A stretch of DNA of 64,000 nt from an uncultured Lentisphaeraceae bacterium (GCA_949282555.1 CASDPK010000003.1:6865-70864); one strand, 5' to 3'; shown: positions 20,762 to 54,702, counted from the stretch's first letter. Notes: generated by a model from the letters alone, not told the origin. Made by a program: numbers and translations.

Positions 20762-21385
20762 TCACGCCACCTTGCGGCGAAGCGCCAGCCCAGCCACTCC
20801 CAGCGCCAGCAACGCCAACGCCGTCGGCTCGGGAACAGTAACTACGCTTCCCTTATAGGCACCCGCAGCGATGATCATATCTTCGGCAGTAATGTCTGTT
20901 TCACTGGTAATAAAATTGAGGCCATTGACTGTTGAGTCCCCTGTTTTGATTACGTTGAACCACTCTTTTCCATCGATGTAAACCGTTACGGTTACATTTT
21001 GCGAACCCTCCGTTAACTTCTCGTATGTTATTGCTACTGTATGCTTCGCTCCTGAGATTGTCGTCTCATTGGCGATGTTATCCGTGTACTGACCTTTTGT
21101 TCCTAGCGCGTAAGTACCATCTTCTGCCCCAGCCTTGACATAAAGAATGGTATTTCCGCCGGACCACTGGGCTGCCTTAAAGATTGCCGCATAGGACTCT
21201 CCCGCAGTCGAGAAGTCCAAGTTGACAATCAACGAAGTTGTTCCAATACCCGTTCCTTGCCCCTGATTTGCCCAAATCGTTTTACTTTCATCGGGGGTTT
21301 CAGGATTATACGTCCAATCATAAGTAATCGCGCTGGCCACGCCGGCCACGCAAAGGGCCGCAAGGGCCATCATCAGTTTCTTCAT
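20762..21385 (-). CDS. PEP-CTERM sorting-domain protein (secreted, unknown function)
   Basis: Signal peptide MKKLMMALAALCVAGVASA. C-terminal VPEPTALALLALGVAGLALRRKVA has the PEP motif, a TM helix and a basic tail. RBS aggag with 9-nt spacer. Confidence 0.8.
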   Translation of the reverse strand: MKKLMMALAALCVAGVASAITYDWTYNPETPDESKTIWANQGQGTGIGTTSLIVNLDFSTAGESYAAIFKAAQWSGGNTILYVKAGAEDGTYALGTKGQYTDNIANETTISGAKHTVAITYEKLTEGSQNVTVTVYIDGKEWFNVIKTGDSTVNGLNFITSETDITAEDMIIAAGAYKGSVVTVPEPTALALLALGVAGLALRRKVA

Positions 21386-21488
21386 CTCCATCATCTCCTG
21401 TTCAAGCACGTTCCGTGCGGTTGAAACTTTCAAGGCGAGGGAACGGCCCTCAAAAGAACCCAAAAGCAACGTCACAATATCATACCTG

Positions 21489-21496
21489 CCCCCCCC
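21489..21496. repeat. C8 homopolymer in the AT-rich upstream region of the PEP-CTERM gene
   Basis: The cccccccc run is adjacent to TTGAC on the gene strand. Confidence 0.9.
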
Positions 21497-21740
21497 GTCA
21501 AGTTTAATTATATCTTATTGATGTATATGTTGATATTTTAACCAAAAGATCTGCCATTGGGCTCAAGAAAAGAAAGGGGCGAGCCGAGGGACTTTGGTCA
21601 CATGTGTTGCAAAGAGCCTTCGAGCTTTGTGTGTTCGTGCACGGAGTCTCTCGGCGTGGGATACAGGGCCCTTTATGATTGGATACGGAGCCTTTCGTTT
21701 CCTTGTATGGGCTGGCTCTTTCGGAATACAGTTTTCAACA

Positions 21741-21751
21741 GGGGGGGGGGG
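21741..21751. repeat. G11 homopolymer tract
   Basis: ggggggggggg lies immediately beyond the terminator of the giant gene. Confidence 0.9.
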
Positions 21752-21756
21752 CTCCA

Positions 21757-21786
21757 TGAAAACAAAGGCGGCCCGGGGGGGCCGCC
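21757..21786 (-). terminator. Intrinsic terminator of the giant secreted-protein gene
   Basis: GGCGGCCC-gggg-GGGCCGCC hairpin followed on the minus strand by TTTGTTTT. Confidence 0.75.
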
Positions 21787-21809: not shown

Positions 21810-24800
21810 CTATTTCTTCACGCGCACCTTGAGCGGGCGGGGCGCTTCCAGAAGTGTTGCCGTAGCCTCTTTCGAAACGGGGAGCTGGATTTCCGATGTC
21901 TCGGTTTCACCAATGGCAACTGTGGCCACGACCTCATCCTCGGCAAGCAATTCCACCGTTGAGCCGGCAACGAAGGTCGCCGTTTGGGCCCCTTCCGCAC
22001 CTTGCACCTTCGCCGTGACCGTGAGGACGCCCGCCTCACGATCATAGGCCATGTCGGCAATGCCGAAGTCGTAGGTCACGGTCAGGGTTGCCGCGCTCTC
22101 CGAGACGGTTGTCGTGAGGACGCCTCCAAAGCAGAGGAGTGCCGCGTCGATTTCTGCGGTCGTCAACGGACGCTTTGCCGTGGTGCCCGAGATCTCGGCC
22201 ACGGAGGCGGCACCTGCGGTGAAGGCTGCCGCAGCGAGTTGCCGTTGGGCGGTTTCCGAAAGTCCCTCGAAGGTTGCTTGGGCTCCCTCAGCAAGGGTCA
22301 GGAATTCATAGTAGAGGCCATCGGCCTTTGCCACGAGTCGCGCCGTGGGGGCTGTGGGCGTTGCCTCGGCGGCCTCGAACGTGACCCCTTCGGGGGCAGA
22401 TGCCCAAGCCAGCAGACGCCGCGTGGAGGTGACATCTTGTGGGAGGGTCACGGCGATGGCTCCGGCTGCCGTCAATGTGCCATTGAGCGTGAGGCAGGCT
22501 TCTGCCGTGGCTTCGGAGGCGTCCAGCGAGGCCCCTTCCGCCAAGTGCAGGGCACACGCCGTTGCGGCTTCTTCCACGATGGGGCCGGTGATGGTGCCCA
22601 ATCCGGAGAGCGCGCCGTACACATTCAACGTTGTATTCGCCGCGATTGTCAGCGTCGCATCGGCGGCAATGGACACGGGGCCGCGACCAAGTGCATTGGC
22701 CGAAGCGATTGCGAGGTTGGCACGGATATCTGTGCCTCCGGTGTAATCGTTGTTCCCGGAGATCGTTAGGTTTTTGGTGGTATCCACAAGCACATGGATA
22801 TCGCCTGTGATCGTTCCTGGAATCGTCCATGGGTTATCGTTTGACCGTGTAAGGCGGAGATAAGCCTTGGAATTTCCCTCCGAAGGGGAGATGGTGCCAT
22901 TGATTCTCAGGTAAGAGCCTCCATAGGAACCTGCCAAAATCGCGGGTTTCTCGGGCGAGGTACTACGCAGACGGATAGCCGGAGCAAAGTTCCCATAATC
23001 CGGCCCTGCATAGGCTCCGTTGGTGAACCTCAACGTGGCGCCACCTTCCAAAACGAAAACGCTGTTCGGATTGGAGAGCTTCACTTGGTGGGAAGAGGCT
23101 CCGTTACCGATGTCCACAATCGCCCCATCGGCCACTTCCATGAAATAGGCCTTGTCATAGGCGATTGTGTCGCTTCCTGATTTCCAGAAGCTGACGGTGC
23201 CTTCTTCGATTCGGAAGGAGACGCCGTCAGGTTCGGCATCGGGAACGATCGACAGTGTCCCCGTCCCGGTCTTCACATAGGTTCCTGCCCCGGAAATCGT
23301 TGGAAGGGTTCCGTTCTGCGTTTGCTCCAGCGTCAATATGGCTTGCGGTTCAAGGGTGGCCGAGGTGAACGAAAGGGTGGATGTCGAAGCCACGAGTCGC
23401 CCGGCAAGCGAAAATTCGTTGACGGAGAGCTGCCCTCCGGAGAGCGTCAGTGTATGTTCTGATTCCATGACCGCAAAGCGATCGCTGTTGTACCCTTCCG
23501 ATGGGATATTGACCGTGATATCCTTTTGTGCGGTCGCGGTGAAATCCGTTGTCCCCGTAAAGCTCTGCCACTCCTCTGACATCGGCGTGACATTGTTCAT
23601 ATCCTTCCACCCGGCGGCGAACCAGTCCGTTGTCGCGTCTTGCGAAAGTTCCGTTGAAAACCGACGGCGAAGCCGATAACAACCGTCTCTCCAAACAAGT
23701 TCGTATCCGGTCTCGGTCCTTGTCCACTGAAGCGTCAAGGCATCCGTTTCGGGCGTCCACAATACAGGGAAGTCCAATGCATTCTGCCACTGTTCTGCAT
23801 CTTCGGGGAGTACGACCTTGACTGTTCCGGAGACGGGGCCAGAGAGTGTAAGTGCGCCATTCGGAGAGGCCAACAACGTACTGCCTTCCTCAAAGGTGAC
23901 ACTTCCTTCCAAGCGACCGATGCCTCCAATCGCGCCGGCCACGGAAATGGGATCGAGGGAGGAGATGGTGGCTTGAGCCGCGACTCCAAATGAAGTCTCA
24001 ACCCAAGCGTTTGGCGTCCATGCGTTGACTTCACTTGTGGCATAAGAACGCTTATCCACGGTTTTCCAGTTTACGCCATCGTCACTTACGGCCAATTCCC
24101 AAGAGGTGGGGTTACGCCCATTCTGGTCGGCCATGGCGAGGCGGTAGGCATCGAAGGTAAATGTGTTGCCTTCGCCGGCATCGAGCGTCAACGAGCAATT
24201 GTCAAAGGCCGTACGGCCTGTTACCCAATACCATTTGGTGCCCAAATCGCCGTCGATGAGATGGTCATCCTTATGGCTGCCGTTTTCTGCGGCCTGGGTT
24301 GCCGTGACGGTGGCGCCATTCCAATCCACTTCTTGCTCGGCCAACATTAGCTTCATTTCAGCCAAAGCGATGCCGTCACAATAATTTCCCGATGTCGCAC
24401 GTGTTAGCAACTGAAGACGGATGTATCGGCCTTTCGCAGTCCCCGCAGACAACATCAAGGTCGCATCCTTATTGATCGTCAGTTGGTCCGCAGAGAGCGT
24501 ACAATCCCCTGCAAGCGTGTAGTTGCCCGAAACGGTCATTGTTCCGACGCGGATATCGTTTGTGAAGGTAACCTTTTCTTGTGCAGGGTTGGCCCCGAAG
24601 GCCACGTCGTCTCCGGCTTGGAATCCTGGGAATCCATCTTCCCATGCGGTGCCGCTTCCGGGAGTTGCCCATGTGAGCGTTTGCTTTTCCGGTGCATAAC
24701 ACAAGAGGCCTGACACAACGGAGAGTGACCATGTTTCGCCTTCAGAAAGCCCCGAGGCGGCAATTGTCAGCCCCTCTGGGACGGATTCCACTCGCCCGAG

Positions 24801-26765
24801 AACCACACGACGGGTGTCAATTTCCTCTTCCGTCACGGCGATTGTCAGCGTCCGTTCGCCTTCCATTGTGAAGGTCGCGTTCGGGAGGCGGTTGGCGCCA
24901 AGGTTCAGGTTGCTTTTCAACGTCAACGCCCCGAAGTCTCTCGAAACGGTCGCTCGGGAGAGGTCAATCCCGGTTTCTCCGCCATCGATGATCAGCTCGG
25001 ATGAGCCGACGGGTGCATTTTCCGCCGAGACTTCCAAGCTCCCCTCGAAAACACCACCCTTTAACGTCAACGACGCTTTGCCCAGAACACCGCCATTAGC
25101 ACCGTAACCACCCGCGCACACACGGTTAGCATAGGTTCCGCCATTCAGCGTCACGGACGTGTCGCCGGAAACGGTGGCCGTGGAGGTGTTGGAAACGTTG
25201 CCGCCATAAATGGGCTGGGAGAAAGTTACGGTGTCGGGCGCCGAAATCGAAACGGATGTATTTCCTGTGATGGCATAAGAAGCGGTCGAGGCGTACGAAC
25301 CTCCGGCGATTTCTTTGACGAACGTTCCCTTCGCTTCGCTTGGAAGGATGACCTCCACCGCAGTGTTTCCGGTTTGCTTTGCCCCAGAGCCTGTATTGCC
25401 CATGTACGCAGACCCACCGAGAATCCGATTACCGACGCCGGCGGCAGCATTCTTGTTTGTTGACTGCAATGCTAGCACGCGCACGTGTGTGTTTCCCGTG
25501 ATGACAGGGGTCAGGTTGTGAGTGGAGAGGGTCCCGCCCACTAAACCTCCGTTAACCGTTCCCTTGACCGTCAACAAGATGTTTCCATTCACGGCACCTT
25601 CGTTGATGAGCCCACCTTTGTAGACGCCTCCAATGAGATTGTTGGCGGTTGCATTTGCGCCAAGCTCAACGGCGATATCCCCTCGCAGAGGCGTGGCATG
25701 ATTGCTGCTTGTCCAGTTGTTCTCTGAGCCTCCGACGATGACATCATGATTTCCGCCGGAGACCATCAGCCATACATCGCGTTCAAGTGGGGTGTCTTTG
25801 TTCCCGTGATTGGCATCATTGACACCGAAAATCTGATGTGCCGTGCCGTCATCGCCTGTGATTTCGGCGACATTCGTTGCTCTGCCACCAAGCGTCTGAC
25901 GGAATACGGCATCCTACTCCAAAGCCAAGTTTTCGGTGAGGGAGCGTTGCACAGCTTGCGTGGGCACCGGTTTCGTTGTCCATCCTTCGGGGACCTCGAA
26001 AGAAACGGGGACGGGCGTAAAACGGGGCGGAGCCATTTCCTCCGCGACCTCTTTGATCTCGTCCGGCGTCAATGCACGCTTCCATACGCCGAGCGCATCG
26101 ATAGCACCACTTCCATGATTTTCTCCGGCGCAATTGTTACCATAACGCGAGCGCCATTGAAATTTGGAGGCAATGACTGCACCAGAGGGCTTTACGGGGT
26201 CTCCAATGGCCTCGCCATCCACGTAAAGCGTCAAGCCGTCATTATTTTGTACCAGCGCGTAGTGGTGATAGGCGACATCGGAACCATCCTTTGACACAGA
26301 GAGGAGGCACTCATTGTTCTGCCCCGTGCAGACGGCCAGCGAACCAGGAGTCTCATCTCGACGGAAAGAAAGGCCCCCGCCTTTGGTCGGGCCAAAAGCA
26401 AAGAGGAGCCCGTTCGCGGAAGTGCCAGTCTGTGCGGTAAAGGCAATCGTGAATGCCTCGTCCTCCACGGAAAGTACGGTTTGTTGATCCCCAGTCCACG
26501 CGTTGTAGGAGGCAAGATTTAATGCCCGATGAGCACCTGAGACGGTAATAAACGAAGGATCGCCCCCGGTGTTCGTGTTCCAAGCGCCAGGATTTTCCTC
26601 TGGAAGCTCGGCGGCGATTCCCTTTTCTGGATCTTCAAAGGTGCTGTAGTAAGACAGATCTGTGAGGAGGTCTCCCGTCAACTCCGCGGAGGTGATGCCG
26701 GGAATGCCCATGGCAATCAGTATGGCCACCCACAGGTGGGGGCGAGGTAGGCTACATTTTCTCAT
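21810..26765 (-). pseudogene. ~1650-aa secreted LamG / beta-helix / F5-8 type C (discoidin) protein interrupted by a single in-frame TAG at 25914-25916
   Basis: ORF 25914..26837 has a signal peptide (MRKCSLPRPHLWVAILIAMGIPGITSA) and a ConA/LamG-like domain. ORF 21810..25766 has Gly/Asn-rich beta-helix repeats, a discoidin signature and Ig-like repeats. The two ORFs are in the same frame. They are separated only by the TAG and 49 stop-free codons whose translation continues the repeat pattern. Confidence 0.6.
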
Positions 26766-26989
26766 CAGACGATTCCTTTCCGTTGAGATGAACGTGTGGT
26801 GGAAACCCACAAACAAACGTTTCTTGGATGATATCACATTGTTTTATGTCTGTCTCGCATTCGGTGAGAAGAGAACAAAAATCCCACATGAGCCCATGCG
26901 GGGAAGGAGACATGAGGGATCGCTTAGGAGAAAAGGTTTTGGAGGATTATTGGCGCATGCTCAATGGGGTTCAAAAGGAAAGACACCTC

Positions 26990-27208
26990 TTAGTTGCGTG
27001 TGGGCGCAAGGAGGTCGTCCACCGTTCGGAAATCCGAGCAGGAGGCCCCGGGGAGGATTTTGTTGAAACGGAAACGCAAGAGCGCCAGATAGGCGAGCAG
27101 GGCCATGGAGTCCCACGTGAGCGTGTCGAGCGGCGTTTCGGGGGTGAGGGTTCCGGGCGCGGCGTTGAGAATGTCGGCCAGTTCGTCGAGAAGATCCTGT
27201 TCGTTCAT
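26990..27208 (-). CDS. Acyl carrier protein
   Basis: 72 aa with a phosphopantetheine-attachment-like DSMAL motif. RBS ggag lies upstream. Confidence 0.7.
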   Translation of the reverse strand: MNEQDLLDELADILNAAPGTLTPETPLDTLTWDSMALLAYLALLRFRFNKILPGASCSDFRTVDDLLAPTRN

Positions 27209-27211
27209 GGG

Positions 27212-28177
27212 TCACTCCGGGAGGATAAGGGGAGGGAGACAGACGTCGAAATCCAACACCGTCCGGGCGGTCAACCACGTGAGCCCCACACCGAAGGCCG
27301 AGAGAAGGGCATCTTGGCGGCCATGGACGCCTTCGGCCACGAGGTCGCACAGAAGCAATGGCAGGCTGGCGCAAGAGGTATTCCCCCTTCGGGCAATACG
27401 GCAGGGCGTCCGCTCAGACGGGAAGCGGCACATCCGGGCGATTTGGCGCACAATGAAGGCGTTGGCCTGATGCAACAACAGCAGATCGGGTGCGCCTGAA
27501 GTCGCCTCCAGTACGCGGAGTATCTGCTCGGGGACGCGCGTGACCGTGAAGTTGAAGACATCGGTCCCCGCCATGTGGAAATGGCCGCCGTGCGGGAGGG
27601 TGATGGCCTCGGAGGCCTCGCAAGCCGAGGCAATGGCCCACGATGCCTCGCCCTTCCCAAGCACCGCCGCAAAACCCGCATCGCCAAACAGCATCGCGGA
27701 AGTATGATCGTTCGGATCCACCAGCCGTGAAAGCGTGTCGCCGCCAAGGAGCAGGACATTGCGGACCTCGGGGGATTGCAGAAAGTGCGCAGCCGTCAGA
27801 ATGCCGGCAAGGAACCCCGCGCATCCTTGATTGAGGTCCAACGCAAACACGTGGCTCCCGAGTCCAAGGCGTCCTTGCAAGAGGGAGGCGGTGGCAGGGG
27901 CGACGGCATCGGGCGTTTGCGTGACGAAGAGCAGAACGTCGATGGCGTCCGCTTCCAGACGGCCTGTGTCAAGGAGCTGGCGGGCCGCCGCTTCGGCGAG
28001 GTCGGAAGCGCGTTGGCTTGGGTTCGCCGCGTGGAAACACTCCACGCCAACGACCTGCCGGAACCGGGCCACCGTTTCGGCTCCAAAACGGTCTGCGAAG
28101 GCTTCCACCTTCACCACGCGCCCCGGCAACGCACAGGCAAGCGCCTTCAAGCGAACGTTTCCGAAGGTTTCAAGCAC
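27212..28177 (-). CDS. 3-oxoacyl-ACP synthase III (FabH-like KAS III), GTG start
   Basis: Active-site Cys (NQGCAGF), HQAN His and a GFGVGLTW Asn region. RBS GGAGG lies 6 nt before GTG 28177. Confidence 0.75.
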   Translation of the reverse strand: MLETFGNVRLKALACALPGRVVKVEAFADRFGAETVARFRQVVGVECFHAANPSQRASDLAEAAARQLLDTGRLEADAIDVLLFVTQTPDAVAPATASLLQGRLGLGSHVFALDLNQGCAGFLAGILTAAHFLQSPEVRNVLLLGGDTLSRLVDPNDHTSAMLFGDAGFAAVLGKGEASWAIASACEASEAITLPHGGHFHMAGTDVFNFTVTRVPEQILRVLEATSGAPDLLLLHQANAFIVRQIARMCRFPSERTPCRIARRGNTSCASLPLLLCDLVAEGVHGRQDALLSAFGVGLTWLTARTVLDFDVCLPPLILPE

Positions 28178-28397
28178 GGTGAGCCTCCACGGCGGACAAC
28201 ATATCCCCCACGGTACGCATGGAGACCATTTCGGCAGAGGTGAACGCCACTCCGAGTCGCCGCTCCACCGCCAGCAACAAGGCCAAATGCGCCACGGAGT
28301 CCCACCCCGGCAGTGCGGCAAAGGCCGTGTCGGCATGGAAGGGCGGCATGGGCTGCCCGAGCGTTTCGGAAAAGAGATCCCGCAAGGTTTCCAACAT
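28170..28397 (-). CDS. Acyl carrier protein (second copy)
   Basis: 75 aa with GWDSVAHL phosphopantetheine site. RBS aggag lies upstream of ATG 28397. Confidence 0.7.
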   Translation of the reverse strand: MLETLRDLFSETLGQPMPPFHADTAFAALPGWDSVAHLALLLAVERRLGVAFTSAEMVSMRTVGDMLSAVEAHRA

Positions 28398-28405
28398 GGC
28401 GACTC

Positions 28406-29893
28406 CTAGGGCTTCGACGGTTCGCGCAACGGCACACCGTGGGTGGCGTAGACGTCCCGGCAACGCGCGTTGCGGTCGGTGGGGAGATACGCCCCGCAAA
28501 GGTTGGGCTCTTGCGCCTTGAGATGGTTGAGGATAAGCGCTTCCACGCCGCGATTCAAGGCCCGGCAACTGATGACCCACGTTTCGATGAAGGCGCCGTC
28601 GAGCACCACCGCACTCACGATCCCGAGGTCCCCGAAGCGATCCCTCAGACGGTACACCCAGCCTCGCTTCCCGGCCAATTCGGCCTCCGTGTGCCGTGTG
28701 CCGCGCATGTTGAACTGGTTGCACCGTTGCGTGAGTTGGGCGGCGCGGGCCGCATTGGCAGGGCCGAGCGGCTCCGGAAGCAACTCCTGATCCAATGAGG
28801 CCAAATAATCCTCACGGGAGGGGGCGGATTGCTCGGCACGCTCGCGGGCATGATCCGCACGCAAAGAGTGGGCGCGTAAGGCGTCGTCCGCCGTGATCTG
28901 TGCGGTCTCAAAGAGATTGAGCCGAGCCAGAAACTCGGGCCACAAGGCCGGATCGGCGGGGAGCTCGGGCACGGCGACCTCGGGAAGGGCGGCACGCACT
29001 TCGGCCCGTTGCTCGGGGCGGTCGTCCACGAAGACAAGGGCGTCCGTCCCCACGTGCAGGTGCGCGGCGATGCGGCGGAGCATGGCGGATTTCGGCCCCC
29101 AATCGGCCTCGAACGCAAGAAAATCCTCGGGAACCATCTCCATCGCCGGATGGCGGAAGGCGGCGTGTGCCGGCTCCCAGTCGTTGCGTGAGGCCACGGC
29201 CAAGAGGATGCCTCTGGCGGCCAAGGCGCGGAGCCACGCGCGATAGGCTTGGCGGCCGGGGGCTTCGGGGGCGATGCCGTCGGGGCCGACCTCGCTGACG
29301 ATGCCATCCCACAGGGTGCCATCCAAATCGGTGACGAGGACTTTGCGCAGACGCCCGAAGGCCGCGCAAAGCGTATCGGCTGTGCGGCGGGCGACTTCCG
29401 GAAGCGCGGCGGGGGCCAATGCGCAGGCGGCGACTTCCCACAAGCGCGGATCGAAGGTTGCCCCACGGCCAAGAAGGCTCTGCACGAGGTCGAGATCCAC
29501 GAGCGAGAGGTTCGCGTGCGTTCGCGCCAACGACTGGAGACGTGTGTTCCAATCGAGAATCCGTGCCCGGAGGGAGGGCGTATAGGTGAGCGCGAGACTG
29601 CCGCAGGTGCCGTCGTCGCGCGTGACCATGTCATAGACGAGAAAGCGGTAAGGCAAGGCCAAGATGGGCTCAAGCTCCGGGAACCGTTCAGCCTCGGCAC
29701 AACACCACACCACCACGGCGTCGGGACGGAACGTTTCCAGTTCGTCTTGCACGGCCAGCGGCGACGTGAAGGCCCAGCACCGGATGTCGGGGCGATACCC
29801 ACGGGTTTGGAGCTCGCCCTCAAGCGCCCGTGCGAGCGGTTGCGGCGCACTGTCGGCAAAGAACGCCACGCGCAGTGTGGGCGATTCCGTCAT
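28406..29893 (-). CDS. FkbH-like HAD-superfamily IIIC phosphatase-domain protein with C-terminal GNAT-like acyltransferase region
   Basis: HAD motif I VLVTDLDGTLWDG. Architecture matches the FkbH-like family (N-terminal SGNH-like part, HAD core, C-terminal acyltransferase-like part). Confidence 0.7.
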   Translation of the reverse strand: MTESPTLRVAFFADSAPQPLARALEGELQTRGYRPDIRCWAFTSPLAVQDELETFRPDAVVVWCCAEAERFPELEPILALPYRFLVYDMVTRDDGTCGSLALTYTPSLRARILDWNTRLQSLARTHANLSLVDLDLVQSLLGRGATFDPRLWEVAACALAPAALPEVARRTADTLCAAFGRLRKVLVTDLDGTLWDGIVSEVGPDGIAPEAPGRQAYRAWLRALAARGILLAVASRNDWEPAHAAFRHPAMEMVPEDFLAFEADWGPKSAMLRRIAAHLHVGTDALVFVDDRPEQRAEVRAALPEVAVPELPADPALWPEFLARLNLFETAQITADDALRAHSLRADHARERAEQSAPSREDYLASLDQELLPEPLGPANAARAAQLTQRCNQFNMRGTRHTEAELAGKRGWVYRLRDRFGDLGIVSAVVLDGAFIETWVISCRALNRGVEALILNHLKAQEPNLCGAYLPTDRNARCRDVYATHGVPLREPSKP

Positions 29894-31035
29894 GGGCGCG
29901 ACTCCGAGAGGGCAAAGGTGTAGCAGGCCCGGAACTCGGCGGCGACCGCCGAGAAGGTGCGGTCGCGCTCCAGCGCCTCAAGGGCGGCAAGCGCATGGTC
30001 GGCGCAGAGCAAGGGGGTCAAAAGGTGACGGCGAACCGCGGCGGTGATCGCCTGCGCATTGGGAGGCACAAGGCAGGCGTTCGCGTCGTTCAGCAACGTT
30101 TCGTAGGCCGGGCAACGGATCACCAAAAGGGGGCGGCAGGCGGCGATGACGTCGAGCAGTCGCGCGGGCGGCAGGATGCCGTGCGCGAGGGGGAGAAAGA
30201 CGAGGTCGGCATCGGCCACGCAGGCGCCAAGCTCTTCCGCATCGCACGGTTCGGGCCGAATCTCCACCGCCGAAGCGTCGGGGAGGTGGCGGGCCAGCGC
30301 CGCACGGATGCGCTCCCCGGCGGCGGGCGCCCCACACGCGATGCGGACACGGAAGTTGGCGTGGGTGAGGAGATCGGGGAGCGCGTCGCACAACGCGGCG
30401 AGCCCCTCCACCCCGGTCTCCGACATGAACGCCGTAAGCCGGAAGGGCTGGGCGGCGCCGTGCAAACGGGGCGGCGGTGGCGGCCGGCGGACAATGGCCG
30501 GATCGGGCAGGGCCGGCACGGTGGCGATGCGCCCATAGAGGCCCGTCTCGCGGAGGCGGGCGAAGGGGTAGGGCACATCGGAGAGCACAAGGCTCACCGC
30601 GCGCAGAAAACGTTTGGGGCGGCGGCGGAGCCACCGCACAAGGTCGTGCCCGGAGGCGGTGTGCCATTCAAAGATGAAGCGCGCACCGAACACCCACGCC
30701 ACCAATCCTCCGACCCGGACGGAACGGTCGGCGCAGTGCACGGCGTCATATCGGCGGTGGATGAAGAGCCGCAATGCCGCCAACGTCAGCGCCAGCGTGG
30801 CCCACCGGCGGCGAAGGCCGGAGCCGTAAGGCGGAAGCGTTCGCGCGAAGGGAACGCGGGCCGTGTGGTAAAGGTGGCGCACTAGGCCCTGAGGCCACGG
30901 ATCGCCCCCCGGGAAGGTGAGCAGGTCGGCCTCAAGGCCCGCGGCCCGGATCAAGGAGAGCATTTGGACGGCCGCCCGTCCGTGCGGGGAACCCGCACGG
31001 TAGACCTGGGCGTAAAGATAGAGCACTCTCCCCAT
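29890..31035 (-). CDS. GT4-family (GT-B fold) glycosyltransferase
   Basis: C-terminal EX7E-like region, otherwise an Ala/Arg-rich GT-B protein. Stop overlaps the FkbH-like start. Confidence 0.6.
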   Translation of the reverse strand: MGRVLYLYAQVYRAGSPHGRAAVQMLSLIRAAGLEADLLTFPGGDPWPQGLVRHLYHTARVPFARTLPPYGSGLRRRWATLALTLAALRLFIHRRYDAVHCADRSVRVGGLVAWVFGARFIFEWHTASGHDLVRWLRRRPKRFLRAVSLVLSDVPYPFARLRETGLYGRIATVPALPDPAIVRRPPPPPRLHGAAQPFRLTAFMSETGVEGLAALCDALPDLLTHANFRVRIACGAPAAGERIRAALARHLPDASAVEIRPEPCDAEELGACVADADLVFLPLAHGILPPARLLDVIAACRPLLVIRCPAYETLLNDANACLVPPNAQAITAAVRRHLLTPLLCADHALAALEALERDRTFSAVAAEFRACYTFALSESRP

Positions 31036-31047
31036 CGCGTGGGCCCC

Positions 31048-31947
31048 TTATTGGAGGCGCAGTTGGGCGCCTTGGCGTTGCACGTGCATTTTGCGCACCA
31101 CCCAGGAGAGGTCGAGGCCGGAGACGAAGGCATTGGCCTGCTTCCCAAAGGCGTCGTCGTCATCGATCACCACCGCCACAATCGTGGGGCCCGCGCCGGA
31201 GATGTAAACGGACACGGCGTCGGTCTGCTCCACCGCGAACCGCATCACATCGGCACCCTGCGGAATGAGCTGGAGACGGTATTCCTGGTGGATACGATCC
31301 TTGCAACCGGCGCGGATGAGGCGAGGGTCGGCGCGCTCCAACCCTTCCAGCAGGATGGGGACGCGCGACAGATTGTAAATGCAGTCGGTCAGCGAATAGG
31401 TCTTCGGGAGCGCGGCGCGCGCGGCCTCGGTGGGCACGCGCACCTCGGGCATGAGCGCATAGAAGCTGATGCGGTCGCTGATCGGGTAGCGGTGCCAGTA
31501 GACCAAGCCGTCTTCCACGATGGCGGCCACGAATCCGCCGAGAATGGCCGGAGCGACGTTGTCGGGGTGCCCTTCGATGAGGGTGGCGGTGCGGAGGATT
31601 TGCTCGGTGTCCATCGAGAGATTGCCCAACGCATTGGCCGCCATCACCCCTGCCACAATGCAAGTGGAGCTGGATCCCAGGCCGGAGCAGACGGGCAGAT
31701 CGGTGTCGAAACCGATGCACAGGTTCGGGGCCAAGCGCCCGTGTTGGGCGAGCACCTGGGTGAGCGTGGTGTACAACAGGTTGTTTTCCGGGGCGGAGAA
31801 CTCCGGAAGGCAACCCTCAATCCGCAGACGCTCGGGGCAATCCGTGTCGAACGTGAAACGGTTGTACATATCGAACGCCAACCCCATGACGTCAAAGCCC
31901 GGGCCGACATTGGCGCTCGTCGCGGGCACCGAAATCTTGAACCTCAT
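31048..31947 (-). CDS. thrB: Homoserine kinase
   Basis: GHMP kinase motifs (PATSANVGPGFD, PxGSGLGSSS). RBS gagagga lies upstream. Confidence 0.88.
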   Translation of the reverse strand: MRFKISVPATSANVGPGFDVMGLAFDMYNRFTFDTDCPERLRIEGCLPEFSAPENNLLYTTLTQVLAQHGRLAPNLCIGFDTDLPVCSGLGSSSTCIVAGVMAANALGNLSMDTEQILRTATLIEGHPDNVAPAILGGFVAAIVEDGLVYWHRYPISDRISFYALMPEVRVPTEAARAALPKTYSLTDCIYNLSRVPILLEGLERADPRLIRAGCKDRIHQEYRLQLIPQGADVMRFAVEQTDAVSVYISGAGPTIVAVVIDDDDAFGKQANAFVSGLDLSWVVRKMHVQRQGAQLRLQ

Positions 31948-32075
31948 AACAATCCTCTCTTCGGCGATTATAGCACAAGCCAATGGCGCGCTTGTGCGGC
32001 TATTCCAGAATGGCCGACCAAATGACAAGGGGCGGCGCGGAGGTCGCGTCGCCCCTCTTTGATTCTGTTCAGACC

Positions 32076-32651
32076 TCAGCCGTTTTGGTGACGCTTGGCG
32101 GCGGCGAGGTTCTTCTCGTATTCGGACTTACAGCTGACGCAACGGATGGCGAAGGGCGCCGCCCGCAGACGATCGCGCGGGATGAGGCATCCGCACACCT
32201 GGCAGATGCCGTAAGTCTTGTTGTCGATGGCACGCAGGGCATCATCGATGGCGTGGAGGCGGGTGTGCTGTTCATCGGCACGGCTGAGATCCGCCGAGCG
32301 CGCGAAGGCGTTGGAACCATCCTCTTCCACGTTCTCCTCGTCCGCGCGGCGGAGCGCATCGGCGCGCGTGGCGCGGAGCTGGCGCAGGATGGCTTCCCGG
32401 TCGGCGAGGAGGCGTTTGCGGAAGTCCGCGAGGTCGGCGTCGCTGAAATGTTGCTCGCCATTTTTGGCGAAGCGGGGGCGCGGGCCGGAACTCTTTTTCC
32501 CAGAGGGACGCACCAAGTCGTACTTGGGGCGGATTGGCAAGGCAGATTCACCGGAAGCGGGAGTGCCTTTTTGCGGGGCAATTTCTTTGACCACCGGCGT
32601 TTGGGTGGCTTCTTGGGGGGCAACTTTCCCCAAGGGAGTTTTTTCAGTTAT
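32076..32651 (-). CDS. DksA/TraR-family C4 zinc-finger segment, in the -1 frame relative to the upstream KA-rich ORF
   Basis: C-terminal CQVCGCLIPRDRLRAAPFAIRCVSC, preceded by a coiled-coil (FRKRLLADREAILRQLR). No ATG or Shine-Dalgarno-supported start lies downstream of the A10 run. Confidence 0.55.
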   Translation of the reverse strand: MTEKTPLGKVAPQEATQTPVVKEIAPQKGTPASGESALPIRPKYDLVRPSGKKSSGPRPRFAKNGEQHFSDADLADFRKRLLADREAILRQLRATRADALRRADEENVEEDGSNAFARSADLSRADEQHTRLHAIDDALRAIDNKTYGICQVCGCLIPRDRLRAAPFAIRCVSCKSEYEKNLAAAKRHQNG

Positions 32652-33175
32652 TTTTTTTTTGAGGGCGTCTTTGCCTTGGGGGCCGCAGGCTTCTTTGCGG
32701 GGGCCTTTTTGGCGACGGCGGCTTTGACGGCCTTGGCAGGGGCCTTCTTCACAGGCGTGACCTTGGCCACGGCCTTTGCGGGCGCCTTCTTCGCTGCGGG
32801 GGCTTTGGCGACGGCGGCTTTGACGGCCTTGGCAGGGGCCTTCTTCACAGGCGTGGCCTTGGCCACGACCTTTGCGGGCGCCTTCTTCGCTGCGGGGGCT
32901 TTGGCGACCTTTGCAGGCGTCGTCTTCGCGGGCGTCTTCTTGGCGACGGCGGCCTTGACGGCCTTGACCGGAGTCTTCTTCGCAGGCGTGGCCTTGGCGG
33001 TAGCCTTGGTCGGAGCCTTCTTGGCGACAGCGGCCTTGACGGCCTTGGTGGGCGTCTTCTTCGCGGGGGTGACCTTGGTTACGGTCTTTGCGGGGGCCTT
33101 TTTGGCAGGCGTAGCCTTGGCCTTTTTCTTTGGGGCCGGTTGCTTTGCGGCCGGGGATTTTTTGGGAGTTGCCAT
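32648..33175 (-). CDS. Histone H1-like Lys/Ala-rich repeat protein (AlgP/Hc1-like), ending in an A10 tract plus TAA
   Basis: MATPKKSPAAKQPAPKKKAKATPAKKAPAK... with tandem AKKAPAK / KAVKAAVAKK repeats. The 3' end is TCA AAA AAA AAA TAA. Confidence 0.65.
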   Translation of the reverse strand: MATPKKSPAAKQPAPKKKAKATPAKKAPAKTVTKVTPAKKTPTKAVKAAVAKKAPTKATAKATPAKKTPVKAVKAAVAKKTPAKTTPAKVAKAPAAKKAPAKVVAKATPVKKAPAKAVKAAVAKAPAAKKAPAKAVAKVTPVKKAPAKAVKAAVAKKAPAKKPAAPKAKTPSKKK

Positions 33176-52306: not shown

Positions 52307-53482
52307 CTACAACTTTGGCCTTGTCGCGAAATCGCTGTAGGGTTCATAGTCGTTAACCGTAAAAGCGATGCTATAGCATTTGCGCCCTAGGTCATCTATT
52401 GTGTGTTCATTGGTGATTTTGACGGAGTCAATGCCGTAAATGTTAAGGTCCTCCATCGTAACGAGGGTGCCTTCGGCTTTACGAAGTACTTGACGCAAAA
52501 GCCATTTCCCAAGTGCGGCATTGGGGGCGCTCATTAGTGCCTTGGAGCCCTCTTGGCAAACTTTTGCTGTAAGGACTTCGCCGTGAGGAAGGCGAAGAGC
52601 GAAGTGTTCATCGCGTGGCGGAAAGAAGCCTGGGTGGAGTGTATGGATTCGTTTGGGAATGGGAATATAAACCTCGTTAAAGTCACGCGGGCGTCCCTCT
52701 GCGTTCCATTGGTTAAGCCCACTTCGTTCCGGAACACTAGGTAACTTTCCGCGTGTGCTATAAAGTGGGAGAATGACATAGTCTTTGGGAAGAGTTTTTA
52801 TAGGGAGATAAGGCGATGATTTTTCCCCTCTGAGAACAGCAAGCAACAGTCGTAACGGGTCTTCAAGGATGTTTACCGGAATTGGGACTGTTCCAACTGT
52901 TGGGACGTGGAACCGTTTTAAGAGAACGCTCTTACTTCGATTGAAGTTGTACTCATTTTTACCGTCATCAAAAGTAATCCCCGCAGTATTCGTCTTTGTG
53001 ATACAAAGTGCGTTGAGGTCTATTGGTTCATAAGGAACATTAAAAAGAAGTAAACCTCCTTCGGTGCGCCCAACGATATGATAAATACTTTGAGTGGTTT
53101 TATAAATGTTGTCTGCGGCTTGAATGCGCGTATTGCGAAAGGAACCAAGTTTTCGGGCGAGATCAAGACCGTCGAGTGGGTCAAGTTCAGCCTTGAGCTT
53201 ATTGAATTCTGCCACCTTTTCAAAAGAGGGGGCCGCCTTGAGAAGAAAGGTTTTGATGCCAACGCCTAGTGAGCCGATCCTTGCGTCATAGGCTGTACAT
53301 GATCGGGCATCGTTGATGGCTTGGAAGAATGTACAGAAGAGATTTTCCGTGAGGCGATAGTCAAGGAAGGGCTGTGAACTTTCCGAAAAGAGTTTAGAAA
53401 GGCTGGCCAGTGCACGAAGTGCATCGAAATAGGGTGCATTCGTTTGCCAAGTGGAAAGAAACTCCTGTGCGGATGGTTTCAC
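52307..53482 (-). CDS. Putative type II restriction endonuclease (cognate of the adjacent m5C MTase)
   Basis: 391-aa low-GC ORF. GTG start overlaps the MTase stop (GTGA). No recognisable family motif. The call rests on position only. Confidence 0.4.
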   Translation of the reverse strand: MKPSAQEFLSTWQTNAPYFDALRALASLSKLFSESSQPFLDYRLTENLFCTFFQAINDARSCTAYDARIGSLGVGIKTFLLKAAPSFEKVAEFNKLKAELDPLDGLDLARKLGSFRNTRIQAADNIYKTTQSIYHIVGRTEGGLLLFNVPYEPIDLNALCITKTNTAGITFDDGKNEYNFNRSKSVLLKRFHVPTVGTVPIPVNILEDPLRLLLAVLRGEKSSPYLPIKTLPKDYVILPLYSTRGKLPSVPERSGLNQWNAEGRPRDFNEVYIPIPKRIHTLHPGFFPPRDEHFALRLPHGEVLTAKVCQEGSKALMSAPNAALGKWLLRQVLRKAEGTLVTMEDLNIYGIDSVKITNEHTIDDLGRKCYSIAFTVNDYEPYSDFATRPKL

Positions 53483-54702
53483 GATAGCTCCATCACTTTA
53501 AGCATTTCGGCACAGACTGCCTGAACGAGAGGAACAACCACGGAGTTCCCTGCTTGTTTGTATTTGGCGGATAGGGGAATAGTTTCTGGGAAGTCATAGT
53601 TCTTGGGAAAGCCTTGGAAGTTAAGGCATTCTTTAGGGGAAAGCTTGCGGATAAGGTTGTTCCGAATAATCAGCGGGACATTGTGCCCCCCGGTTCCCAT
53701 ATTTGCCGTAAGCGTTGGACAAACGTGGCTTTGATTTTTACGAACATACTGTCGTCGCCACTGATAAATGCTATTAGGATCGATTATCTCTTTCCGAAGT
53801 TCCTCGAAGTGTGACATCGCTTCCGTGTAAACAAGCCGCGGATCTTTAAGTTGGGCATCGATACAGTCATGAATGGTTCGTGTAAGTAGTTGTTTTTTAG
53901 GGAATTGAAACGTATTACAACGTGGAACTCGCATTGGATCAAAGCAGATGATAAAGAGCCGTTCACGGTTCTGGGGAACGTTCGCATACACCATTGCATT
54001 CATCACCTTGTGAAAGACGCAATAGCCCAGTTGGCGGAGTGTTCGGTGAATAACTTCGAACGTTTTACCTCTATTGTGGGAGGTAAGGTTCTTCACATTC
54101 TCCAAGAAGACAGCCTTTGGATGTTTGGTCTTGAGAATCTCAGCGATGTCATAAAACAGTGTCCCTCGCGTGTCATCAAACCCTTTTTGATAACCGGCAA
54201 TAGAAAAGGGTTGGCATGGAAATCCCCCGAAAAGGCAATCGAATCCTTCGGGGATTGCCGCCTTGGTCTCCGCGTGGGTAATATCACCATATGGTACCTC
54301 ACCGAAGTTATGGCAATAGGTCTTTTGTGCATTGATGTCAAACTCGGAGGAAAAAACACACCGCCCACCGAGTGCTTGTGCCGCCAAGCGAAAACCTCCG
54401 ATTCCCGCGAAAAGATCAACGAACATGAATCGATTTTCCGTCGGACGAAATGGCGCATCCTGCCGTTCAAAGAGACCTTCTTGGACGTTTATCTGATGTA
54501 ACGACTGAAAGTGTTTTTGGGGCAACTTTTCAATAGGTATATTTGAGGCTGTCGCTTTCTTTTCCAATGTGTTGGATTTTGAATCGGAAATCAAACAGCT
54601 ACGCAGTAATTTCAAGTCCCCATGCTCATTCTGTTGGGTAGAAACCGAATGCGTGTTTTTTTTGCCTTTTACGTGTGGCCTTTGACCTCCCGAAGAAGAC
54701 AT
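53479..54702 (-). CDS. DNA (cytosine-5)-methyltransferase
   Basis: Motif I FAGIGGF, motif IV GFPCQPFS, motif VI ENV and motif VIII QNRERLF. 92-aa N-terminal extension containing an A8 run. Confidence 0.88.
   Translation of the reverse strand: MSSSGGQRPHVKGKKNTHSVSTQQNEHGDLKLLRSCLISDSKSNTLEKKATASNIPIEKLPQKHFQSLHQINVQEGLFERQDAPFRPTENRFMFVDLFAGIGGFRLAAQALGGRCVFSSEFDINAQKTYCHNFGEVPYGDITHAETKAAIPEGFDCLFGGFPCQPFSIAGYQKGFDDTRGTLFYDIAEILKTKHPKAVFLENVKNLTSHNRGKTFEVIHRTLRQLGYCVFHKVMNAMVYANVPQNRERLFIICFDPMRVPRCNTFQFPKKQLLTRTIHDCIDAQLKDPRLVYTEAMSHFEELRKEIIDPNSIYQWRRQYVRKNQSHVCPTLTANMGTGGHNVPLIIRNNLIRKLSPKECLNFQGFPKNYDFPETIPLSAKYKQAGNSVVVPLVQAVCAEMLKVMELS

Follow-up and report, generated by a model that had tools for sequence, protein, structure and literature searches.

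The window analysed here, a stretch of 64,000 nucleotides, carries on its minus strand a long reading frame from 26837 to 21810, which on translation contains only one internal stop, the TAG at 25916..25914. The sequence-only reading had described two ORFs in the same frame parted by this single TAG, with 49 stop-less codons between the TAG and the first ATG of the lower ORF, and both the arrangement and the translation given for those codons hold; the 49 codons (25913..25767) also contain no ATG, GTG or TTG, and the first in-frame start downstream of the TAG is the ATG at 25766. The same reading placed the beginning of the upper ORF at 26837, and although the frame is right, the GTG at this position is probably unused, as the gene calls in related contigs all begin at the ATG giving a product of 283 aa. 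This ATG, at 26765 (MRKCSLPRPHLWVAILIAMGIPGITSAE...), is the likeliest true start of the giant gene, whose final stop lies at 21810, and the fused gene amounts to 283 + 1 + 1367 = 1651 codons followed by a final TAG. A 1367-codon open frame extending a 283-codon one is a gene, so that chance is not an issue. In a six-frame scan of the window no other TAG-interrupted gene was found, and this is the sole case there of a single TAG breaking what homologues show as one gene.

The lower ORF was also said to lack a signal peptide and RBS of its own, and on reading the sequence we find neither a hydrophobic N-terminus nor a purine-rich SD-like motif ahead of the ATG at 25766. These observations, together with the absence of start codons from the 49 preceding codons and the unsplit state of the orthologues, led us to reject an arrangement of two adjacent genes. 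An out-of-frame ATG that overlaps the stop (TAGGATG) was considered as a re-initiation site and rejected, since it lies in another frame. A promoter-like site and a purine-rich stretch precede the giant gene, and the terminator-like hairpin located 24 nt past its stop suggests that it is monocistronic (Table 1). Just past this hairpin is a poly-C run (window 21741..21751) with 11 C in the window, 12 in contigs L084 and L085, and 13 in L082, and this variation reflects either real length polymorphism or homopolymer assembly error.

Table 1. Features of the interrupted gene in the window, and lesions of the same gene in related contigs.
Feature	Position	Strand	Basis or contigs
Promoter-like site GAGACA-17-TATCAT with TG, 5' of the giant gene	26828..26856	-	Consensus scan; pattern match only
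Purine-rich GGAAAGGAA ahead of ATG 26765	26781..26773	-	Sequence reading; pattern match only
Ancestral single gene, interrupted at codon 284, encoding a secreted surface protein (LamG / beta-helix-like / discoidin)	21810..26765	-	Translation, intact alleles, distant single-chain homologues
Upper ORF as now translated, 283 aa: signal peptide, complete LamG/ConA-like domain and ~45 residues	25917..26765	-	Product P0007 recorded in NCBI, Logan and ENA
Predicted N-terminal signal peptide (MRKCSLPRPHLWVAILIAMGIPGITSA, with E first after the cleavage site)	26685..26765	-	Sequence read directly; cleavage site by eye
Laminin_G_3 (ConA-like lectin), PF13385, residues 101-238	26052..26465	-	Pfam, E 9e-13
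Premature TAG at codon 284, from CAG (Gln) by one C-to-T transition (plus strand G to A at 25916)	25914..25916	-	Allele comparison
49 sense codons after the TAG, start-less and now untranslated; opening of the conserved second module in the intact protein	25767..25913	-	Translation, homologues, AF2
Lower ORF, 1318 codons from its first ATG; P0014 of gene callers	21810..25766	-	Translation
F5/8 type C (discoidin), PF00754, residues ~821-932 of the full protein	23970..24305	-	Pfam, E 3.5e-9
Intrinsic-terminator-like hairpin GGCGGCCC-CCCC-GGGCCGCC, then TTTGTTTT, 24 nt past the stop of the gene	21759..21786	-	Read from sequence, GC-rich stem; absent from the list of the automatic scan
G5 to G6 slip, frameshift, on a different haplotype	gene nt ~390		L087, L092
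Deletion of C (GGCCG to GGCG)	gene nt 431		L090, L091, L095
IS-like insertion	gene nt ~682, equivalent to window ~26084		L093 6686..6782, L088 1..97, L089
Ambiguous junction	gene nt ~740		L094
Inovirus-like integrated element, ~6.8 kb	gene nt ~3285, equivalent to window ~23480		L001 9246..~16030

The upper ORF had been read as a signal peptide followed by a LamG-like domain and the lower ORF as beta-helix repeats with an F5/8 type C domain. The N-terminus does read as a signal peptide, and both Laminin_G_3 (49.1 bits, with a gathering threshold of 27.6) and F5_F8_type_C (37.3 bits, with a threshold of 28.2) score above threshold in Pfam. The repeats do not reach the Pfam cut-off as PATR repeats (18 bits against 27), yet an AF2 model with a mean pLDDT of 73 gives a confident beta-strand repeat region from about residue 250 to 780, within which residues 251-300 have pLDDT values of 77-85; ahead of this the model has a beta-sandwich spanning about residues 100-230, then a helix at 234-244. 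By way of the LamG part, a Foldseek search with the AF2 model found lectin-like jelly-roll domains and nothing else (botulinum HCN, lectin domains of trans-sialidases, and a GH43 accessory domain), and it gave no informative match to the beta-helix region. An NCBIfam search of the giant protein returned nothing useful, and a sequence search of the PDB found no solved structure matching it. Pfam detected no autotransporter domain or barrel, no PEP-CTERM signal, and no other anchor in the giant protein, which does not have the features of a type V autotransporter adhesin with PATR repeats. Its function, localisation and anchoring can be suggested from the domains only.

Relatives of the giant protein are numerous, and a scan of 1.84 billion representative proteins identified 289 at E<=1e-3 and 62 at E<=1e-30, many of them 1300-2300 aa long. 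In about 12 representatives with 35-45% identity, residue 284 falls inside one continuous match; P0036, for example, matches query residues 10-1083 and P0035 residues 22-985, and both alignments are continuous across residue 284. Many other relatives share only a common module that begins at about residue 250-265, and the TAG is thus just inside the second module and not in a linker. A genome scan with the C-terminal part confirmed no relative, and the species is thus not among the GTDB representatives that could be reached by the patterns used.

Three explanations had been offered for the interruption (a recent nonsense mutation, a sequencing error, or programmed amber readthrough), and the alleles found in other samples bear most directly on the first of these. 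With the first 776 residues of the fused protein as query, a homology search identified P0001 (92% identity), which reads ...LALEQDAVFRQ... through the TAG site, and P0002 (39% identity), which is also continuous over it. By exact look-up the products of both of the ORFs in the window have database records (P0007 of 283 aa and P0014 of 1318 aa), and the clusters at 90% identity to which they belong contain 12 distinct full-length alleles of 1648-1652 aa (P0006, P0013, P0015-P0021 and P0025-P0027) as well as one with an in-frame deletion. At the TAG position, each of the 17 protein alleles spanning the site has Gln. One of these, P0017 (1651 aa, present in three contigs), is the same as the fused window protein at 1650/1650 comparable residues, with Gln where the window has TAG.

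At the nucleotide level the TAG is present in the window and in L084, L085 and L086, and all ten other loci that cover the site (L001, L082, L083, L087-L092 and L095) have CAG. L083, an 8465 bp contig from another sample, differs from the window at a single base, position 25916, and the ~25 kb contig L082 differs by the same SNP, a synonymous SNP at 24492 in the giant gene, the length of the poly-C run, and a 156-bp indel. A lone C-to-T change in 8465 bp of an otherwise unchanged clonal background implies that the TAG is derived and extremely recent. The comparison of orthologues that had been proposed thus returns uninterrupted genes throughout, the other alleles all having CAG and the relatives at 35-45% identity being continuous, and the opposite outcome, in which orthologues are organised as two separate genes, was not found; the orthologues are single 1651-aa genes. 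Comparison with three other alleles by the Nei-Gojobori method puts dN/dS upstream of the TAG at 0.04-0.46 and downstream of it at about 0.21, and these values, about 0.2 on either side, show that purifying selection acted on the gene as a single unit before the lesion arose. With a near-identical intact orthologue in hand and a lesion that is derived, the recent nonsense mutation is strongly supported. A C-5 cytosine DNA methylase gene is located elsewhere in the window (53479..54702), and deamination of 5-methylcytosine could be one candidate route to the C-to-T change at 25916.

A single-base difference in a background that is otherwise identical is also what would be expected if CAG were the true codon in the organism and the TAG a sequencing, consensus or assembly error in the deposited assembly. 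A metagenome consensus in mixed populations can take a minority base, the poly-C run close to the gene varies between assemblies of the same allele, and the three TAG assemblies may share the same or closely related samples. However, the TAG recurs in a 121 kb ENA scaffold (L084; ERZ16268229 scaffold_68), in an independent Logan contig (L085; run ERR10610616), and in a 2.7 kb MEGAHIT k87 contig of another series (L086; ERZ17292904), and its presence in three assemblies made by different pipelines makes an assembler artefact unlikely. The TAG site lies outside any homopolymer or repeat. Substitution errors are rare in high-coverage short-read consensus sequences. We therefore regard an error in the deposited sequence as very unlikely. 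In the L086 contig the TAG goes with a 5' haplotype that is partly different: 31 SNPs lie upstream of gene nt 240, and the sequence downstream is identical. This mosaic reflects either recombination between alleles or a chimeric contig.

The third explanation, programmed amber readthrough or recoding, supposes that a regulated full-length product is made by decoding of the TAG, as Gln or pyrrolysine for example. It gains something from the ancestral residue being Gln, the amino acid that the near-cognate tRNA-Gln(CUG) inserts at UAG, from the location of a tRNA-Gln(CUG) gene within the window, and from a downstream frame that is wholly intact; insertion of Gln at UAG by near-cognate tRNA-Gln has been described in E. 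coli (PMC4333366). The stop is nonetheless missing from every other allele and from all distant homologues, such that conservation in orthologues, where the codon is CAG in 10/10 loci and the residue Gln in 17/17 alleles, is not what is seen. TAG is moreover a working stop in this genome: the FkbH-like gene, whose product is 495 aa in all related loci, ends in TAG, as does the giant gene, and for this reason we reject reassignment of the code. ARAGORN found no suppressor or Pyl tRNA in the 64-kb window, the sole tRNA there being tRNA-Gln(CUG). The extremely recent origin of the mutation, with one nucleotide of divergence, fully accounts for the intact downstream frame, as an allele that is one mutation old needs no special explanation for it. 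Programmed readthrough finds no support in these data and we consider it extremely unlikely.

We conclude that the TAG is very probably a real and very recent nonsense mutation, Q284* (CAG to TAG), in a single clonal lineage of a Lentisphaerota bacterium resembling Candidatus Spyradenecus, and that it creates a loss-of-function allele of a 1651-residue secreted protein. The normal product would have a signal peptide, a LamG lectin-like domain, long beta-helix-like repeats, a discoidin domain, and a variable C-terminal region. In the TAG allele RF1 would presumably terminate translation at the UAG, so as to export only a 283-aa precursor consisting of the LamG domain and a short tail, and the beta-helix, discoidin and C-terminal regions would be lost from the product. 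The remaining 1367 codons would go untranslated, save for rare near-cognate decoding of the UAG by tRNA-Gln(CUG). Because such misreading would regenerate the wild-type residue, a trace of full-length protein is plausible, although this would be leakiness and not a programmed event. Internal initiation at the ATG at 25766 is unlikely, and would give a signal-less, mislocalised cytoplasmic fragment; the lower ORF (21810..25766) is most likely not expressed as a functional protein. Only small polar effects on the neighbour genes would be expected, as the giant gene has its own apparent promoter and terminator, and a promoter-like site of its own precedes the downstream PEP-CTERM gene. We infer that the TAG allele is either a loss-of-function or a strong knock-down variant of a surface protein.

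The downstream PEP-CTERM gene (21385..20762) is preceded by the promoter-like sequence TTGACG-16-TATTGT (window 21474..21501), with a G8 run in the spacer. This layout is typical of phase-variable promoters, but the length of the run is identical in all of the loci compared. Upstream of the giant gene is a small conserved cluster (window 26990..31947), intact in all related contigs, that encodes a GHMP/homoserine-kinase-like protein, a 381-aa unknown protein, the FkbH-like protein, an acyl carrier protein, a KAS III-like protein, and a second carrier-like protein of 72 aa, and which may correspond to a small lipid or polyketide-type pathway. The 156-bp segment that is missing from the near-identical L082 lies at window 31968..32123; without it L082 lacks the final codons of a DksA/TraR-type zinc-finger gene, a hairpin, and the promoter-like sequence (TTGTGC-TATAAT) of the homoserine-kinase-like gene. 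Tandem repeats with units of 96, 54 and 42 nt at window 32708..33106 encode on the minus strand a lysine/alanine-rich low-complexity protein, which appears as a 175-aa gene call in related contigs.

The window is chromosomal, with genes for EF-G, RpoD, a sulfatase and a PEP-CTERM protein, and ribosomal genes are located nearby in L082. The closest match to RpoD, at 69%, is from a Lentisphaeraceae MAG and places the organism broadly in the PVC group, and the 90% cluster of the homoserine-kinase-like protein has members named either Candidatus Spyradenecus sp. (a Lentisphaerota genus) or Kiritimatiellae bacterium. Searching the literature by run accession gave no information on the habitat sampled.

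The giant gene is damaged in other samples too, by different, independent lesions (Table 1). The IS-like insertion is bounded by 15-bp terminal inverted repeats without mismatch (ACAGGCTTATCCCGG), has duplicated 4-5 bp of its target (ATGG), and divides the gene between two scaffolds of ERZ16268080; it is also present in a Logan contig of ERR10610470, and the inverted repeat ACAGGCTTATCCCGG has no copies in the window. The inovirus-like element in L001, a contig of a related strain, carries genes for a pI/Zot-like morphogenesis protein, a serine recombinase/DNA invertase, and a Gp49-like protein, and is flanked by an imperfect direct repeat (TGAAGGGTACC / TGAAGGTACC). The junction in L094 is ambiguous and represents either a rearrangement or a chimeric scaffold, with a truncated neighbour gene on the same contig. 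The flanking genes (381, 495, 622 and 492 aa) are nearly all full length among the cluster members listed. As regards phase variation through simple-sequence repeats, the TAG is a substitution and not a change in a repeat; one other lesion, the G5 to G6 slip, does alter the length of a run, but five G is short for a contingency tract, and the remaining lesions are a CC to C deletion, an IS, and a prophage.

Intact alleles of the giant gene are themselves mosaic. A block at gene nt 1200-1500 (window ~25270..25570) is hypervariable, differing at about 30% of nucleotides among alleles whose identity elsewhere is 97-99%, and a cassette in the C-terminal third (window ~22670..23480) occurs in two very different versions (SGGQLSVNEFSLAGRL... 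and SGGKLAPNALTVEGNL...). The known pattern of an exposed surface protein that is under diversifying selection and repeatedly lost fits these observations. They suggest either relaxed selection or, more likely, positive selection for loss of an exposed protein, such as escape from phage or host recognition, although positive selection is plausible only, because the sample of alleles is small and was collected through fragments of the giant gene itself.

Two further proposals follow this line. The first is that the truncation is adaptive, in which case the benefit would come either from the LamG fragment of 283 aa that is secreted or from losing the large passenger, and the TAG would be a segregating polymorphism spread by recombination. 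Neither the signal peptide nor any of the LamG domain is lost to the TAG, L086 has it on another 5' haplotype (the 31 SNPs upstream of nt 240), and there are five further independent lesions in other samples, four of them within the first 850 nt. But L086 is a 2.7-kb contig, probably from a mixed-strain sample, that may be chimeric, and the clustering of early lesions may reflect the way in which the alleles were collected, and we therefore hold adaptive truncation to be possible but doubtful. The second and broader proposal takes the giant gene as a hotspot of parallel, positively selected inactivation (by Q284*, the deletion of C431, the G5 to G6 slip, the IS, and an inovirus-like prophage with its attB in the gene), with the protein being a receptor or target for a phage or for host immunity, and the amber allele being leaky and spreading by recombination, as L086 would indicate. 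We offer this only tentatively and think it rather unlikely in its entirety.

Loss of large surface proteins has precedents. In Yersinia pestis inv is disrupted by an IS and yadA by a frameshift, and in Salmonella Typhi shdA, ratB and sivH are pseudogenes. As in those losses of adhesins, a large surface-protein gene is hit by nonsense mutations, frameshifts or mobile elements, relatives are intact, and the downstream frame has not decayed; here, however, the lesions are polymorphisms among metagenome samples of one uncultured Lentisphaerota species and not fixed differences between pathogens, and the function is deduced from domains. Gut commensals undergo parallel loss of envelope or receptor genes within populations under phage or immune pressure. 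The giant gene resembles these in having several types of lesion in one surface gene, intact flanks, and intact alleles that are mosaic or hypervariable, but differs in that the statistical support is weak and the selective agent is only hypothesised.

Recoding of TAG to Gln exists in some phages. The present case is similar to phage amber recoding or near-cognate suppression in that the TAG occupies a position where homologues have Gln and near-cognate decoding would insert Gln (PMC4333366), and is dissimilar in that the gene is chromosomal, TAG is used as a stop, the TAG is unique to one clonal allele, and no suppressor tRNA is present in the window. With the giant secreted beta-helix proteins of the PVC group the intact protein shares the signal peptide, Laminin_G_3, the long and confident beta-strand repeats, and F5/8 type C, but it has no detected barrel, PEP-CTERM signal or other anchor, and its PATR score is below the Pfam cut-off.

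The kind of event described here is well known, although this instance is new. In annotation, the pair of ORFs should be recorded as a single disrupted gene, either a pseudogene or a nonsense allele, and neither as two genes nor as a case of recoding. The single TAG is biologically ordinary, and the wider pattern of lesions is the more useful result: with five clear and mechanistically different lesions and one ambiguous junction, mosaic alleles, and conserved neighbours, the protein is a likely target of strong fluctuating selection. The giant protein is thus a concrete candidate for studies of phage receptors or host interaction in an uncultured gut-type PVC bacterium.
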